This document shows, piece by piece, positions 1,664-63,522 of a stretch of 64,000 bases of DNA. Below the pieces are notes generated by a model. That model was not told the DNA's origin and ran no database searches. It saw only the letters and a list, made by a program, of their open reading frames with translations. Both the position numbers and the translations under genes were made by a program. The DNA comes from Patescibacteria group bacterium UBA926 (GTDB lineage Bacteria > Patescibacteriota > Doudnabacteria > UBA920), in assembly GCA_002293685.1 (NCBI GenBank), contig DBDS01000007.1, positions 40,140-104,139 on the forward strand. Reading direction: 5' to 3'. Every line of letters begins with the position of its first letter. Position 1 is the stretch's first letter.

Positions 1664-1706
1664 AATCCCCGGAAGCCTGAAAGGCTATCCGGGGTCTTTT
1701 TATTTT
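1664..1706. terminator. Bidirectional rho-independent terminator between the convergent 127-aa gene and valS.
   Basis: Hairpin CCCCGGAAGCCTGAAAGGCTATCCGGGG followed by TCTTTTTATTTT on the + strand. On the - strand the same hairpin is followed by TTCTTTTTT. Confidence 0.55.
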
Positions 1707-4003
1707 GGCCAGTTGGCGATAATGAGTGTTTTATCTTCCACGAGCTTACCTTCGCGTAACTTCTGCCATAGTACTTCTGTTACGAATGGCATGAACGGAT
1801 GGAGAAGTTTTAAAATGTGTAAGAGAATGTGAAGCAGTATTGCTTGAGTATTAGCTTTTTGATTTTCGTTCTGAATTTGTTCTTTTGTTGCTTCGATATA
1901 GACGTCTGCAAATTCTTTCCATACGAATTCATAAAGTGTTTGCGCCGCGTCATGAATGCGGAAAACATTCAAGCTCTTGGAAACAGATTCAATTGTTTCT
2001 GAAAGCTGGTTTAAGATGAGTTGATCGGCTTTGGTGAGCTTGTCATTCTGAGGCGAAGCCGAAGAATCTAGATCCTTCGCTACACTCAGGATGACAGCCA
2101 CTTCATCTGCAGAGATATTGGTTAGGATATATCTTGTGATATTCCAAAGCTTGTTCCCAAAGTGCTTCATACCTTTGATTTTATCCTCTGCTAAAGCGGT
2201 ATCTGTTCCAGGGGCTGTATTGAATACCAAGGCAAAACGCAATGCGTCGGTGCCGTATTTTTCAATCATGTCGAGCGGGTCGATAATATTGCCAAGGCTT
2301 TTACTCATTTTTTGGTTTTTGGAATCTCGGATTAAGCCGTGCAAATAAACATGTTCGAACGGAATTTGCCCTAAGTGATAACCGCTCATCAATACCATAC
2401 GAGCAACCCAGAAGAATAAGATATCGTATCCAGTTTCCATTACAGTTGTTGGATGGAAGGTTTTTAAATCCGGGGTTTCGTTTGGCCAACCTAAAGTAGA
2501 GAAAGTCCACAGTCCAGAAGAGAACCAAGTGTCCAAAGTGTCTTCGTCCTGAGTCCAGCCTTCGCCTTCAGGCGCTTCAATTCCTACATACATGTTACTG
2601 TCATCCTGAGCATCACTGTCATCCTGAGCGTTAGCGAAGGATCCATTATCAGATTCTTCATTCCGCTTCGCTCCACTCAGAATGACAGGGGTAGTTTTGT
2701 ACCAAACAGGAATACGATGCCCGAACCAAATCTGACGAGAAATACACCAATCGCGCAAGTTATCTATCCAGTGGAAGTAGGTTTTGTTAAAGTGATCTGG
2801 AAAAATTTTTATTTGCCCGCTTGTTACCACTTGCCGCATTAACTCTTTTAACGTGGTTTCTGTGCCTGAATCAATTCCTTCAATTTGAGACTTCTTTAAA
2901 GTAAAAGGTTTATTTACATCTAAGAACCACTGCAGTTTCGGTAATGGCTCGATAATGCCACCGCTTCTTTCGGCTGTGGCAACATTTTGTTTGACCGATT
3001 CTTCGCGCTCCAATAGATTCTCGCTTCGCAACCATTCGACAATGGCTTCACGCGCCACTGTTGTTTTTTGATCAATCACACCTTCTTGCCCAGCGGTCAT
3101 TTTTGCAAACTCGTTAATGACTTGCTTGAAAGGAAGCTTGTGTCGTTCGCCGATTTCAGCATCAACTTGGCTATGAGCTGGAGTGACGCCCAAAGCACCA
3201 GTTCCAAATTCTGGGTCAACGCTTTCTTCACCAATAATTTTGATGTGAAGTTGTTCACCTGCAAAAGTAACATCAAATTCTTGACCGATAAATTGTTTGT
3301 AGCGAGCATCTTCAGGATGAACTGCAACTGCGGTGTCACCAATTTTGGTTTCCGGGCGTGTGGTAGAAATTGAGATAGGGAAGTCGGCGCTATATTTGAA
3401 AGTATAAAGAGTCGCTTCACGCTCTTCGTGAACAATTTCGTCATCAGAGATAACAGTTTGGCCTTTCGGATCCCAGTTGATTACTTTGTGCGCACGGTAA
3501 ATTAAACCGTCGTCGTACATATTCTTAAAAGCTGTGCGAACAGCTAGACTGCGAGGTTCGTCTAAGGTGTATGCTTCGCGGCTCCAATCAACGGAAGCAC
3601 CAAGCGCTTTGATTTGACCAACGATTGTGTCGCGACTTTCTGCTGCAAATGTTTCCACGCGCTTTACGAATTCTTCACGACCTAAATCGGTTTTGCGAAC
3701 ACCTTCTTTGGTTAAGATTTTTTCTACTTTGGATTGGGTCGCGATTGCAGCGTGGTCTGTTCCTGGTAACCATAAAGTCTTGCGTCCTTGCATGCGACGG
3801 AAGCGAGTGAGTATATCTTGAATTGTCACGAACAGCGCGTGGCCAACATGAAGCGTTCCAGTCACGTTTGGGGGCGGCATGATAATAGAGAACGGTTCGC
3901 CGTCACCTAAATTATCTGGGTTAAAATACCCAGAATCTAGCCAGTTTTGGTAAATATCCGCTTCGTATTTTGAGGCTTCATAGGCCTTATCTAGTTCAAT
4001 CAT
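1700..4003 (-). CDS. valS: Valyl-tRNA synthetase (class I aminoacyl-tRNA synthetase). It carries two in-frame family-A repeat insertions.
   Basis: HIGH motif (PNVTGTLHVGHAL) and KMSKS motif are present. CP1 editing-domain region and anticodon-binding region are present. 767 aa. Inserted peptides AVILSVAKDLDSSASPQNDK and NEESDNGSFANAQDDSDAQDDS are encoded by repeat DNA. Confidence 0.93.
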   Translation of the reverse strand: MIELDKAYEASKYEADIYQNWLDSGYFNPDNLGDGEPFSIIMPPPNVTGTLHVGHALFVTIQDILTRFRRMQGRKTLWLPGTDHAAIATQSKVEKILTKEGVRKTDLGREEFVKRVETFAAESRDTIVGQIKALGASVDWSREAYTLDEPRSLAVRTAFKNMYDDGLIYRAHKVINWDPKGQTVISDDEIVHEEREATLYTFKYSADFPISISTTRPETKIGDTAVAVHPEDARYKQFIGQEFDVTFAGEQLHIKIIGEESVDPEFGTGALGVTPAHSQVDAEIGERHKLPFKQVINEFAKMTAGQEGVIDQKTTVAREAIVEWLRSENLLEREESVKQNVATAERSGGIIEPLPKLQWFLDVNKPFTLKKSQIEGIDSGTETTLKELMRQVVTSGQIKIFPDHFNKTYFHWIDNLRDWCISRQIWFGHRIPVWYKTTPVILSGAKRNEESDNGSFANAQDDSDAQDDSNMYVGIEAPEGEGWTQDEDTLDTWFSSGLWTFSTLGWPNETPDLKTFHPTTVMETGYDILFFWVARMVLMSGYHLGQIPFEHVYLHGLIRDSKNQKMSKSLGNIIDPLDMIEKYGTDALRFALVFNTAPGTDTALAEDKIKGMKHFGNKLWNITRYILTNISADEVAVILSVAKDLDSSASPQNDKLTKADQLILNQLSETIESVSKSLNVFRIHDAAQTLYEFVWKEFADVYIEATKEQIQNENQKANTQAILLHILLHILKLLHPFMPFVTEVLWQKLREGKLVEDKTLIIANWPK
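2041..2096. repeat. Family-A repeat, short copy, inserted in-frame inside valS.
   Basis: TGTCATTCTGAGGCGAAGCCGAAGAATCTAGATCCTTCGCTACACTCAGGATGACA. Translated on the minus strand it gives AVILSVAKDLDSSASPQNDK within ValRS. Confidence 0.7.
2598..2689. repeat. Family-A repeat with a duplicated left terminus, inserted in-frame inside valS.
   Basis: CTGTCATCCTGAGCATCACTGTCATCCTGAGCG...CTCAGAATGACAG. It encodes the acidic, low-complexity ValRS segment NEESDNGSFANAQDDSDAQDDSNMY. Confidence 0.7.
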
Positions 4004-4179
4004 AAATTTATAAATTAAAAAGACACCAATCCGCTTGCGCAGGGTGTCTAGAGTTTGGTAAGTTCTAACTTACCAAACGGTACCATCTAGAGCTTTCGCT
4101 TAATTTTTCCAGATTACGGTTGGGGCCGACAGGTTCTACTCGCTGGGATTATCCCGAGCTTTCTTCCTGTACCTATCCG

Positions 4180-4758
4180 CTATGGGCGGAGCACTTTGGT
4201 GACAGCCAAAGAATCGGTTTGCCTTTGTAGGTTCATTATACTGACAGCCTTTGCGTTTGTAAAGCTAGTAGATAGTTTTGAGATTAGTCCTAGCTTTTCT
4301 CCGGGAGGAATTGGAATTTCTCCGTATTTAAGTACAACTCCATAGTGCACCTCTACTGAACGCAAGAAGTTTCTCGATTGCTCAAAGAAATCTTCTGTGG
4401 TGAGTGAAGAGGTCTTTAGCATTAAGAACCTTCCATCCTGATTAGGTTCCAAATAGAGCAGACTCAAGAGACGTCTTCGTTCAAGATCGCTCAGGAGACG
4501 TTTAGTTTTTTCTGAAGTTTGATGTGGTGATTTTTCGATCAGTCTATAAAGTTCATTGAACACATCTTCAGAAAAAACCAGGCCGATTTTTCTTTGTACT
4601 TCAACTAGCTCGCGGGACATGGTTTTTGGGTTGATGTTGAAATACTGAGTATCTTCGTCTACCAGAGCTATGTAGCCGATAGAGGGTTGGGCCGAGGTGA
4701 CACACCAGCTCATCAAAAGCCAGCCTATTAAAACTACTAGTTTCATTCTTGCCTCCAT
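4180..4758 (-). CDS. Hypothetical secreted protein with an N-terminal signal peptide.
   Basis: N-terminus MKLVVLIGWLLMSWCVTSAQP is signal-peptide-like. No recognisable domain. Confidence 0.45.
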   Translation of the reverse strand: MEARMKLVVLIGWLLMSWCVTSAQPSIGYIALVDEDTQYFNINPKTMSRELVEVQRKIGLVFSEDVFNELYRLIEKSPHQTSEKTKRLLSDLERRRLLSLLYLEPNQDGRFLMLKTSSLTTEDFFEQSRNFLRSVEVHYGVVLKYGEIPIPPGEKLGLISKLSTSFTNAKAVSIMNLQRQTDSLAVTKVLRP

Positions 4759-4808
4759 TTCAATTGATGAGGCATTTTAGTATTTGAGCGAGTGGTCTGT
4801 CAAATTTA

Positions 4809-5846: not shown

Positions 5847-6022
5847 AACTTATTTAAAAATGTCATCCCGACGACCACATGTCCTGAGTAAAGTCGAAGG
5901 ACGCGGGCCAGCCGGGATCTGTGTTGGTATTATATCGGGTTTTGAAGCAAAACAAAAACCACTTAATTTCACTATAATAGTGCCCAATGATGGGAAAATG
6001 GCTTTTGTTAGACGTATAAAAA

Positions 6023-15637: not shown

Positions 15638-16370
15638 ACTTGGAAACACTTTTCGCTTAGGGTCGCACTTGCTGTTTTGCGGCGATTCTCGAAATAAAGA
15701 AATGGTTGCAAAGCTTATTGGCAAATATAAAATCAAAGCAGTTATCACTGATCCTCCCTACGGTGTTGCAGTCACGGAAAGCAAGGAAAAATTCCAAGCC
15801 CTCTCTAAAAATAAACCCATTCTAAACGATCACTTGCAGAGTGATGAAGAGTACCAAGTCTTTAGCCGTGAATGGATTGAAGTTATAACCCCATACCTTG
15901 AACTTAAAAATAGCTTCTACATTTTTAACTCAGATAAAATGGTTTTTGCTTTACGCGAAGGTATGTTAAACGCAGGTATTAAACTTGCGCAGCTTCTAGT
16001 CTGGGTAAAAACCCAAGCAGTTATTGGAAGAATGGATTATGCACCTCAGCATGAATTAATTGCATATGGATGGCTTGGTGTGCATGAGTTTCTTAAATCT
16101 AAAGATAAAAGTGTACTAGTATGTCCGAAACCAAACAAAAGTAATATGCATCCTTCTACTAAACCTTTAGATTTGATCCGTAGACTTATCCTTAATAGCA
16201 CTCGCATTGGCGATATAGTCTTTGACGGCTTTCTTGGGAGTGGCACTACCTTGCTTGCCTGCGAACAGACAAAGCGAATCTGTATCGGTGTAGAAATGGA
16301 TACCGAGTATTGCCAAACTATAATAGATAGGTTTGAAAAATTAACTGGCGTAAAAGCAGAAAAGTTATGA
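15612..16370 (+). CDS. N6-adenine/N4-cytosine DNA methyltransferase, beta class.
   Basis: Motif IV DPPY (VITDPPYGVAV) precedes motif I FLGSGTT (DGFLGSGTTLLACEQ). Confidence 0.8.
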   Translation: MKKLSSSIKLGNTFRLGSHLLFCGDSRNKEMVAKLIGKYKIKAVITDPPYGVAVTESKEKFQALSKNKPILNDHLQSDEEYQVFSREWIEVITPYLELKNSFYIFNSDKMVFALREGMLNAGIKLAQLLVWVKTQAVIGRMDYAPQHELIAYGWLGVHEFLKSKDKSVLVCPKPNKSNMHPSTKPLDLIRRLILNSTRIGDIVFDGFLGSGTTLLACEQTKRICIGVEMDTEYCQTIIDRFEKLTGVKAEKL

Positions 16371-33361: not shown

Positions 33362-33437
33362 GTCGGGTCATCCCGGACTTGATCCGGGATCTCGAGATTA
33401 TTTAGAAGATCCTGACCTTCGTCAGGATGACTTAATT
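33362..33437. repeat. Family-A-related palindromic repeats (variant termini GTCATCCCGGA / GTCAGGATGAC).
   Basis: GGTCATCCCGGACTTGATCCGGGATCTCGAG ... GATCCTGACCTTCGTCAGGATGAC. Confidence 0.5.
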
Positions 33438-34390: not shown

Positions 34391-34492
34391 CTGTCATTCT
34401 GAGCGAAGTCCGCCTAAATCTCGCAGAGATTTTGTGCGGACGAAGCAAAGAATCCCATAAGATCCTTCGTCGCTTCGCTCCTCAGGATGACG
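34391..34492. repeat. Family-A palindromic repeat, intergenic.
   Basis: CTGTCATTCTGAGCGAAGTCCGCCTAAATCTC...GACGAAGCAAAGAATCCCATAAGATCCTTCGTCGCTTCGCTCCTCAGGATGACG. Confidence 0.7.
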
Positions 34493-41134: not shown

Positions 41135-41398
41135 AGTTTTAGTTTCGGTCTCTTGGTCGTCTGCTATCGGTTCGGGAAACCCGAACCTTCAGCAGACTCT
41201 TGGTCGATAACTTTGTCATTTCACTGCGTTGCTCACTTTGCGTACGTTTCAGTACGCGTCGTTCGCTACTCGTGAAATTCCTCGTTCTCGACCAATCCAA
41301 GAAACCTCTATTAATGGTTTTGAGTTTGTCGTCCCGAACTTGCATTGTCCGCCATAGCTTTAGCGGAGGTGGAATTCGGGATCTCGTGAATATTCTCT

Positions 41399-41460
41399 AG
41401 ATCCTGACTTTCGCCCGCCCGCATGCTTCGCAAAGCGAAGCGGGTAGGGTCAGGATGACA
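41399..41460. repeat. Family-A-related palindromic repeat (variant), intergenic between rpsF and ssb.
   Basis: GATCCTGACTTTCGCCCGCCCGCATGCTTCGCAAAGCGAAGCGGGTAGGGTCAGGATGACA. Confidence 0.55.
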
Positions 41461-48071: not shown

Positions 48072-48150
48072 GTGTCATTCTGAATCCGCCAAAGGCGGAC
48101 GAAGAATATCATGGAGATCCTTCGGTCGCTTTGCTCCCTCAGGATGACAT
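48072..48150. repeat. Family-A palindromic repeat, intergenic.
   Basis: GTGTCATTCTGAATCCGCCAAAGGCGGACGAAGAATATCATGGAGATCCTTCGGTCGCTTTGCTCCCTCAGGATGACAT. Confidence 0.7.
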
Positions 48151-59247: not shown

Positions 59248-59457
59248 TTACTGACGTTTAAAAATATGCTCAATCGGTTTTCCAAAATGTTCCGCAATTT
59301 GCATTGCTAATAGAAGTGAAGGGGCATAGTTGCCTTTTTCAATTGCAATTACTGTTTGTCTGGATACGCCTAACTCAGACGCCAAGTCTTCCTGAGTTTG
59401 ATTACGTTCCTGTCTTAATTTTTTTATGTTGTTTTGTAGCATAAATTTCATTGTCAT
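59248..59457 (-). CDS. XRE-family helix-turn-helix transcriptional regulator.
   Basis: LRQERNQTQEDLASELGVSRQTVIAIEKG HTH_3 signature. 69 aa. Confidence 0.8.
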   Translation of the reverse strand: MTMKFMLQNNIKKLRQERNQTQEDLASELGVSRQTVIAIEKGNYAPSLLLAMQIAEHFGKPIEHIFKRQ

Positions 59458-59534
59458 CCTGAATCATTTTTGTCATCCTGAGCGAAGCGAAGGATCTCAT
59501 AAGGATTCTTCGTCCCGCCGTGGGCGGAACTCAG
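59452..59534. repeat. Family-A palindromic repeat with a duplicated left terminus.
   Basis: TTGTCATCCTGAATCATTTTTGTCATCCTGAGCGAAGCGAAGGATCTCATAAGGATTCTTCGTCCCGCC...CTCAGAATGACACC. Confidence 0.7.
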
Positions 59535-59554
59535 AATGACACCAGTTTGATAAA

Positions 59555-63442: not shown

Positions 63443-63454
63443 CATGCCTAGCAT

Positions 63455-63522
63455 GTCATCCTGAAGGAGCGAAGTGACTGAAGGATCTCAACGAAAGATT
63501 CTTCGCTACGCTCAGAATGACA
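63455..63522. repeat. Family-A palindromic repeat between hrcA and grpE.
   Basis: ATGTCATCCTGAAGGAGCGAAGTGACTGAAGGATCTCAACGAAAGATTCTTCGCTACGCTCAGAATGACAAAG. Confidence 0.7.

Follow-up and report, generated by a model that had tools for sequence, protein, structure and literature searches.

Palindromes that code for protein segments were first noticed in Rickettsia: according to PMC10969869 and PMC3733652, the Rickettsia palindromic elements (RPEs; Ogata et al. 2000 and 2002) are multi-copy palindromic repeats that occur between genes as well as in-frame within housekeeping genes, to whose products they add peptides. Repetitive extragenic palindromic sequences (REPs) with a CGTC or TGTC tag form head-to-head dimers and include Neisseria dRS3 and the R. 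conorii elements RPE-4 and RPE-6; intragenic dimers of this kind encode 20-30 aa, are found in tRNA synthetase genes among others, and two in one gene are known (PMC3733652). The underlying survey covered five phyla, without Patescibacteria (Di Nocera et al. 2013, PMC3733652). Here, we analysed one 64 kb stretch of DNA (hereafter the window; GCA_002293685.1, contig DBDS01000007.1) from Patescibacteria group bacterium UBA926, a member of the candidate phyla radiation (CPR; Doudnabacteria), in which the gene for valyl-tRNA synthetase (valS, ValRS) contains two palindromic repeats. We consider it probable (roughly 0.85) that both repeats were inserted into valS, are tolerated in-frame, belong to the REP superfamily and owe their spread to an Ssn-like nuclease.

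Ssn proteins, in the portions of PMC11893778 on which we draw, are single-domain GIY-YIG nucleases of ~94 aa that cut only single-stranded DNA (ssDNA) beside NTS/SRM hairpins. The same portions describe an NTS-ssnA-NTS layout of their genes (Chenal et al. 2025, PMC11893778), flanking frequencies of 71% and 42%, and a preference in cleavage and binding for which the three nt that precede the stem and the C right after it are critical, whereas the loop may vary or extend. The association of GIY-YIG genes with hairpins was thereby published in 2025, and those portions of the paper discuss neither in-frame copies in genes nor Patescibacteria. REPIN/RAYT systems carry a GTAG tag and an HUH/Y1 transposase, and an inverted pair of REPs forms a larger hairpin (Bertels and Rainey 2011, PMC3116915). 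The phenomenon treated here is thus already known from RPEs, from intragenic CGTC-REP dimers and from Ssn-associated hairpins.

Two palindromic repeats in the valS reading frame

The valS coding sequence (1700-4003, minus strand) encodes an intact protein of 767 aa, as indicated by its open reading frame (ORF), its match to ValRS of Thermus thermophilus (1gax, the top PDB sequence match, E 5e-165), a structural model and the ratio of non-synonymous to synonymous substitution (dN/dS). The repeats inside it are assembled from two kinds of half-unit, T-type with the pattern (T/C)GTC-ATTCT-GAG-(variable stem-loop)-GA-AGAAT-C and C-type with the pattern (T/C)GTC-ATCCT-GAG-(..)-GA-AGGAT-C. A canonical copy is a head-to-head dimer of a T-type half-unit, a spacer of 2-9 nt and the reverse complement of a C-type half-unit. 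Insert 1 (site 1, aa 440-468) occupies 2599-2687 and is a hairpin dimer with an 18-nt duplicated terminus: its T-type half-unit (GTCATTCTGAG..GAAGAATC) lies on the minus strand at 2652-2686, its C-type half-unit (GTCATCCTGAG..GAAGGATC) on the plus strand at 2618-2643, and an 18-nt copy of the C-type terminus (GTCATCCTGAGCATCACT), here called a stutter, on the plus strand at 2600-2617. Insert 2 (site 2, aa 637-654) is a hairpin dimer at 2041-2096 with a T-type half-unit on the plus strand (2042-2068) and a C-type half-unit on the minus strand (2071-2095). An nhmmer profile built exclusively from 91 half-units beside GIY-YIG genes on unrelated metagenome contigs detected four of four valS half-units, with window-wide E-values from 7.6e-6 to 6.4e-5 (6.4e-5 and 2.1e-5 for the T- and C-type half-units of insert 1, 7.6e-6 and 1.8e-5 for those of insert 2), and scored the stutter at E 0.045. 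As all four half-units are found by an independent profile, the repeat DNA in valS is not a chance resemblance. The initial annotation had located copies at 2041-2096 and 2598-2689 and held their DNA to be recognisable at the nucleotide level; it was right on the latter point and, to within 1-2 nt, on the coordinates.

The core of insert 1 (2600-2686) comprises 87 nt or 29 codons and encodes the minus-strand peptide VILSGAKRNEESDNGSFANAQDDSDAQDD, while the core of insert 2 (2042-2095) comprises 54 nt or 18 codons and encodes VILSVAKDLDSSASPQND. Both cores measure a multiple of three, start at codon position 1 and run through a stop-free frame, and so the earlier statements that the two repeats leave the 767-aa frame undisturbed and encode these two peptides, the first of them acidic, hold. 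In insert 2, one of the six frames is open, namely the frame in use; in insert 1, two are. Each repeat terminus contains a TGA in one frame, and with TGA at both termini the only phase that escapes in elements with a length divisible by three is GTC ATY CTG AG. ... CAG RAT GAC. This is the frame in use, reading VILS at its start (GTC ATY CTG AG.) and Q(D/N)D at its end (CAG RAT GAC). Insert 1 owes its acidic low-complexity tail, AQDDSD-AQDDS, to the duplication of the 18-nt terminus (GCTCAGGATGACAGTGAT GCTCAGGATGACAGT), the second AQDDS unit being encoded by the stutter at 2600-2617. Most likely, the inserts are translated and give the enzyme two passenger peptides, 29 and 18 residues long, in which case the expected junction peptides in ValRS are TTPVILSGAK, DLDSSASPQNDK and a long tryptic peptide starting with NEESDNGSFANAQDDSDAQDDSNMYVGIEAPEGEGW.

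Lineage-specific inserts and the integrity of valS

Homologs of the 767-aa ValRS with 98-100% identity carry both segments in the protein homolog search, and theirs is the only lineage to do so. The next-nearest orthologs (P0006, P0007 and P0008; 83-87% identity, 724 aa) lack both in the protein alignment, and their DNA alignment with the window gene contains two gaps that precisely span the repeats. No repeat termini were found in the valS genes of these three orthologs. Gene order is common to the window and the 724-aa lineage, with TsaD, valS, a 126-aa ORF and a cohesin-like protein. The initial annotation had proposed lineage-specific insertions and named the orthologs as the place where this view could fail; segments and repeat DNA alike turned out to be missing there, which supports the proposal.

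The window is identical across 14,003 nt to three independent JGI assemblies, and the identical ValRS protein is encoded on at least 21 contigs. JGI samples that contain this genome include 3300005688, 3300005689 and 3300014773. A divergent strain, GCA_022842405.1 (locus L004), has a valS that is 96.7% identical at the DNA level (76 of 2304 nt differ) and contains both inserts in-frame; within the inserts, 2 of 141 nt differ between the two strains, none of them among the 87 nt of insert 1. Synonymous differences affect 55 codons and non-synonymous ones 14, corresponding to a dN/dS of 0.067. Judging by this ratio and by the identical assemblies, valS is a working gene under strong purifying selection, and it is neither a pseudogene nor an assembly artefact. 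The window strain and GCA_022842405.1 would have inherited both valS copies from a common ancestor that acquired them after the split from the lineage with the 724-aa ValRS.

It might be argued that the segments are ancestral or convergent loops, or assembly chimeras, and that their likeness to the repeat is a coincidence, given that both sites are naturally length-variable among orthologs and that the flanking sequence fails to give back a clean empty site. Against this stand the close orthologs without the segments, the detection of all four half-units by an independent profile, the agreement of three independent assemblies and a divergent strain, and the 27-nt right half of insert 2, which is identical to copies on contigs of Saccharibacteria, other Patescibacteria and Rickettsiales. 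Ortholog absence, the independent profile and the identical assemblies effectively refute this explanation. Very improbable, too, is the view that the segments are not translated, either because the palindromes are removed or bypassed at the RNA or protein level or because this gene is inactive and another valS is used. It could appeal to the indirect case for translation and to the strong hairpins that may form in the transcript; the segments, however, resemble neither introns nor inteins, are short (54 and 87 nt) and have no Rfam match at the gathering threshold. A stop-free frame and lengths in multiples of three would be needless if they were removed, the low dN/dS is that of a working gene, and the gene order matches the locus of the single-copy ortholog.

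Two further features of this locus concern its recent history. Seven of the 14 non-synonymous differences from the divergent strain cluster at 2822-2872 (ValRS aa 378-394), a tract in which the window matches P0006 and L004 matches P0008, and this mosaic suggests recombination between lineages inside valS. Between valS and tsaD lie 805 nt (4004-4808) with a 192-aa ORF (4180-4758, minus strand) that has no Pfam match; the segment is kept in L004 and absent in the 724-aa lineage, whose TsaD-valS spacer measures 46-122 nt (L001, L003).

Position of the inserts in the enzyme

In the sequence alignment with 1gax, insert 1 lies between HRIPVWY and DEDTLDTWFSS, where Thermus ValRS has a loop with CEDC...CEAC (CxxC...CxxC). 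It thus adjoins the catalytic core, with DTWFSS following after ~25 residues. For insert 2, the alignment points to the loop that follows the NKLWN..R(Y/F)(I/V)L helix, the first helix of the anticodon-binding helical domain. The two sites rank among the most length-variable alignment columns of ValRS orthologs. An AlphaFold (AF2) model of ValRS on 103 sequences reached a mean predicted local distance difference test score (pLDDT) of 87, a predicted template modelling score (pTM) of 0.84 and a TM score of 0.83 to 1gax; an earlier model on 24 close sequences (mean pLDDT 56) was set aside for it. Residues 439-467, corresponding to insert 1, form the only segment with a pLDDT below 50, and insert 2 scores 68-82 versus 94-97 in the flanking helical blocks. 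Insert 1 is accordingly predicted to be disordered, and both inserts appear to sit at tolerant surface loops that fit the fold, with weaker evidence for insert 2; the loop positions foreseen in the initial annotation are supported to the same degree by the 1gax alignment and the model.

The acidic disordered loop of insert 1 or a helical extension formed by insert 2 might have been co-opted, contributing to ValRS function under positive or purifying selection, e.g. by modulating tRNA binding or partner interactions. The position of insert 1 next to the catalytic core would suit such a role, and so would the fact that both inserts are intact and in-frame in two strains with a valS nucleotide difference of 3.3%, insert 1 even without a change (0/87). 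However, at 0-2 differences per 141 nt the inserts do not fall significantly below the 3.3% average of the gene, the orthologs nearest to this ValRS work without either segment, insert 1 is predicted to be disordered, and the occurrence of the same peptides in unrelated proteins (GAPDH, RpoC and FolD) speaks for passengers. We therefore regard co-option as unlikely and favour tolerated insertion, under which the copies would persist because their sites are among the most length-variable ValRS loops and because their phase is the only one to bypass the TGA of the repeat termini. That an essential synthetase has tolerated two palindromic insertions, as first proposed from the sequence of this gene, agrees with both the orthologs that lack them and the dN/dS of 0.067.

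The repeat family in the window

The terminal 11-mer GTCATYCTGAG (at most one mismatch) occurs 21 times in the window versus 1.63 occurrences expected, a number reached in none of 100 shuffles. Seven canonical dimers were found in the 64 kb (1180-1255, 2041-2096, 2599-2687, 34392-34492, 48073-48149, 59471-59541 and 63454-63522), along with two variants (33367-33431, 41374-41459) and several partial copies. The two in valS are the only intragenic copies; all others are intergenic. Among the latter, the dimer at 1180-1255 is accompanied by a solo terminus at 1145-1155 (1145-1255 as a whole), that at 34392-34492 has a long distal stem, and that at 59471-59541 follows a stutter terminus at 59453-59463 (59453-59541 as a whole), whereas those at 48073-48149 and 63454-63522 are plain dimers. 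Read by eye, the seven canonical dimers carry a TGTC tag at 12 of their 14 termini and a CGTC tag at the other two.

Full dimers fold as long hairpins with z-scores between -2.5 and -4.9, both valS copies included (insert 1, z -3.5; insert 2, z -3.7). Across all fetched loci (see below), self-complementary arms after GTC and before the trailing C numbered 723 versus a permuted mean of 115. The arm pairs seen were ATTCT/AGAAT, ATCCT/AGGAT, ATCCC/GGGAT, ATTCC/GGAAT, ATTGC/GCAAT, ATGCT/AGCAT and ACCCT/AGGGT, and this compensatory covariation argues that each half-unit is a conserved hairpin. No conserved flank was found around the window copies; the copies at 1169 and 2698 have flanks that resemble each other (8/12 ungapped, by eye), which we put down to chance. 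Rfam holds no family for the repeat at the gathering threshold, the terminal 11-mers matched only primers in the full text of the literature, and the same kind of search returned nothing relevant on palindromic elements in CPR.

The variant at 33367-33431 is a dimer of the same superfamily, composed of GTCATCCCGG..CCGGGATC and GTCATCCTGAC-GAAG-GTCAGGATC, the latter with an 8-bp stem and a 4-nt loop. Variant hairpins with arms ATCCC/GGGAT and ATCCTGAC/GTCAGGAT (33367-33431, 41374-41459 and 5862-5919) lie after a CsoR-like repressor gene, beside rpsF and upstream of tsaD.

Stutter arrays consist of one to four truncated 5' arms (GTCATCCTGAG plus ~8-12 nt) with a period of 18-23 nt, directly upstream of an intact half-unit. 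They were observed in the window at 2600-2617, 59453-59471 and 1145-1180, and beside GIY-YIG genes in L177, L135, L137, L149, L146 and L157. Such arrays may have arisen through several rounds of cleavage and repair, or else through nested insertion at the tag.

The intergenic spot of the window dimer 1180-1255, between the 126-aa ORF and the cohesin-like gene, is occupied by a family dimer in a lineage of 83% identity (L003:5220-5271) and contains no copy in one of 87% identity (L001). To judge from this locus, repeat content is turning over quickly among close relatives. Other Rfam matches in the window include a LOOT RNA (RF03000; 18378-18493, plus strand; 70.2 bits versus a gathering score of 46.4) and a tRNA gene (RF00005; 31814-31885, minus strand; 66.8 bits).

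A GIY-YIG nuclease gene nested in the repeat

A 97-aa GIY-YIG ORF (Pfam E 3.8e-16) is located 1.9 kb beyond window position 1, precisely between a C-type and a T-type half-unit. This element, which belongs to the same genome as the window (L207, L208, L209, L004: 15909-16257; protein-coding part at L207:15925-16218), represents a long form of the repeat in which the ORF takes the position of the 2-9 nt spacer of short copies. Further short copies follow directly downstream of it (~16264-16350). The same nesting was seen in one Cyanobacteriota and one Omnitrophota contig, and on a Tissierella contig the GIY-YIG gene is flanked by full dimers; the four GIY-YIG proteins are 52-58% identical to each other.

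We fetched 80 metagenome loci by homology to the GIY-YIG protein, and in 68 of them the distance from the gene to a family terminus is at most 130 nt. When hairpins were counted by a definition independent of the family sequence, a hairpin in forward orientation preceded the gene in 42 of the 80 loci and one in reverse orientation followed it in 42, with 27 loci having both. Hairpin density reached 5.8 per kb near the GIY-YIG gene versus 0.48 per kb farther off, a 12-fold difference. This architecture, taken together with the published biochemistry, most likely links the repeat to an Ssn-like GIY-YIG nuclease. By analogy with the described system, the spread of the repeat, whose mobility we infer, would most likely be driven by such a single-domain nuclease specific for ssDNA.

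Several observations weigh against inserted repeats spread by an Ssn-like nuclease. At the DNA level, none of the seven copies shows a target-site duplication, and neither valS site yields a clean pair of filled and empty states: site 1 is flanked by TTP/SNMY versus G/EEIF in orthologs, and site 2 shows a net gain of 13 codons, versus 18 in the insert. Further change must therefore have come with or after insertion, and the homolog search found no ValRS of 87-98% identity that could resolve the flanks. At the protein level, the case for translation is built on frame and selection, and two changes in 141 insert nt are too small a number for a verdict on how selection acts on the inserted peptides. 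As for the nuclease, the published SRM motif HGTCWYN(0-2)YYVSBRHN(0-5)WNVSBRGN(0-2)RNCYNB has no match in the window and a single one in the 189 kb of the 80 GIY-YIG loci, which equals the shuffled control, although the same expression recovered the Neisseria NTS sequence; because the motif misses these repeats, they form a sub-family outside the published definition. The GIY-YIG protein itself, a putative member of cd10448 (the Ssn family), has only a weak, sub-cut-off NCBIfam match, and its PDB sequence matches are the UPF0213 proteins 1zg2 and 1ywl (E 1.6e-8). A full-text literature search under COG2827/UPF0213/YhbQ returned nothing relevant.

Relation to known palindromic elements

The window repeat is multi-copy and palindromic, occurs between genes as well as in-frame within one, and leaves the host protein undestroyed, all of which it has in common with RPEs. 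RPE-4 and RPE-6, CGTC-tagged hairpins or dimers adding 20-30 aa, are close in size to the valS inserts, and the tag and stem start are common to the window repeat and both elements as described in PMC3733652. Exact matches to the window family occur, among the matches listed, in the Rickettsiales metagenome-assembled genomes (MAGs) L016, L019 and L056. The RPE-6 peptides of R. conorii read SFLRKQES...DSRFRGND (PMC3733652). They should, by inference and without computation, back-translate to GTCATTCCTGCG-type hairpins; hairpins of this type flank near homologs of the window genome's GIY-YIG gene in L142 and L178. The systems differ in the host (Rickettsia versus a Doudnabacteria-like member of the Patescibacteria), in the core of the window repeat (CTGAG...GAAG, with tandem G.A and a distal stem of variable length), in the frame used, which gives VILS...Q(D/N)D in the window inserts, and, for RPE-1, in a length of ~150 bp that far exceeds that of the window repeat. 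Since the half-units bear the (T/C)GTC tag and the AT-starting stem of the CGTC-REP superfamily, the link between valS inserts and RPEs is probably one of homology. The initial annotation had spoken of an analogy; the likeness stands, and the word probably falls short of it.

Likeness to CGTC-REPs extends to the (T/C)GTC tag, the stem starting with AT, the short unpaired tail and the predominance of head-to-head heterodimers, every canonical window copy combining one T-type and one C-type half-unit in inverted orientation. In both, copies are mostly intergenic and close to gene ends, with some intragenic ones. By contrast, the described stems are perfect over 8-9 bp with loops of 4-5 nt, whereas in canonical window copies a stem of 5 bp is followed by tandem G.A and by a distal stem of variable length; an 8-bp stem with a 4-nt loop (GAAG) is seen only in the variant at 33408-33431. 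By its sequence pattern, the repeat matches the CGTC/TGTC-tagged REP superfamily that includes Neisseria dRS3/NTS and RPE-4/6.

The Ssn system is resembled in its layout, i.e. a gene for a single-domain GIY-YIG protein of ~95 aa with oriented hairpins on either side, with the same repeats scattered in the genome. The flanking counts (42/80 on each side, 27/80 on both) are reminiscent of the published 71% and 42%, and the window family keeps the GTC tag and trailing C invariant and varies in the distal stem-loop, just as the positions critical for Ssn and those left free. The published SRM search motif does not match the window sub-family. The window system thus appears to resemble Ssn/SRM in its working and is a putative member of it.

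REPIN/RAYT is similar in its inverted pair of hairpins, its non-autonomous nature and a lone dedicated nuclease gene with repeats on both flanks, but the window tag is TGTC/CGTC and the nested gene a GIY-YIG, the ORFs of the window having had no exhaustive RAYT scan. Terminal inverted repeats are also found in classical miniature inverted-repeat transposable elements; here, however, target-site duplications are lacking at the seven copies and the long form carries a GIY-YIG instead of a DDE transposase.

Distribution across genomes and host proteins

A pattern scan of one genome per species, among the matches listed, found the architecture in Patescibacteria, Saccharibacteria, Omnitrophota, Clostridia, Bacteroidota, Rickettsiales, Planctomycetia, Nitrospirota and others. 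About 12 of 131 complete dimers in the fetched loci lie inside long ORFs. Host proteins confirmed by Pfam include FGAM synthase (PurL; Omnitrophota), an IleRS-like class I synthetase (Rickettsiales), GAPDH, RpoC and FolD, and one Saccharibacteria contig encodes ValRS and TsaD with an in-frame copy in each. The in-frame peptides are closely alike across proteins (e.g. VILSAAKDLGDSSAAPQND and VILSAPEGSQKDSSASPQND), and elements with a length that is not a multiple of three give rise to frame-switched forms such as SHPERSEGS...SSASPQND.

In the Saccharibacteria MAG, the copies in the neighbouring ValRS and TsaD genes are found at L059:1131-1190 and L059:2617-2698. The ValRS copy occupies a third site, between the YxxKY and TTRPET motifs at the entry of the editing domain. 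The IleRS-like synthetase of a Rickettsiales MAG contains two repeat-derived segments, L019:185-246 and the DNA encoding ...SYCEPLGCTVSPSTDPALSLRSPQDD...; one of the two, a variant dimer, occupies the loop corresponding in the alignment to ValRS site 2, a hint that class Ia synthetases may repeatedly receive or tolerate insertions in this loop.

Older, decayed insertions were considered in two other ValRS proteins. Site 1 of P0020 was rejected on account of its DNA, which has no repeat signature. At a further site in P0027, the pair CTCAAGATGAC/CTCAAATGAC is only suggestive and was not counted as evidence; the segment concerned (TAQDDNSNDTNHAPN, encoded in L007 by GCTCAAGATGACAACTCAAATGACAC) is perhaps a decayed pair of termini and too degenerate to call.

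A wider proposal, which we put forward tentatively and consider doubtful at present, is that CTGAG-type dimers are active non-autonomous partners of the Ssn-like nuclease. Repeat and nuclease would then spread horizontally as a pair across phyla and colonise tolerant loops of ValRS, IleRS, RpoC, GAPDH, FolD, PurL and TsaD as safe havens by way of the one stop-free frame.

Implications for core genes of Patescibacteria

What is new here is modest, namely a host among the Patescibacteria, the double insertion in ValRS, a sub-family missed by the published motif and a bridge between RPEs and Ssn. The CPR case indicates that an essential class I aminoacyl-tRNA synthetase took up two selfish-repeat insertions and that purifying selection on it is still strong. 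The SRM search motif in its published form overlooks a widespread sub-family that reaches from Patescibacteria to Rickettsiales, Clostridia, Omnitrophota and Planctomycetia. Through this sub-family, Rickettsia RPEs, CGTC-tagged REPs/dRS3 and Ssn nucleases can be connected, an explicit link among which is not made in the cited papers. On a practical level, lineage-specific peptides of the type VILSxAKDL...DSSASPQND in core proteins can mislead ortholog assignment, alignment and gene prediction in MAGs. If the dimers do act as partners of the nuclease, the 25-year-old puzzle of 'protein-coding palindromes' posed by RPEs would be tied to one specific nuclease, and small CPR genomes would be a major reservoir of insertions that lengthen core proteins.

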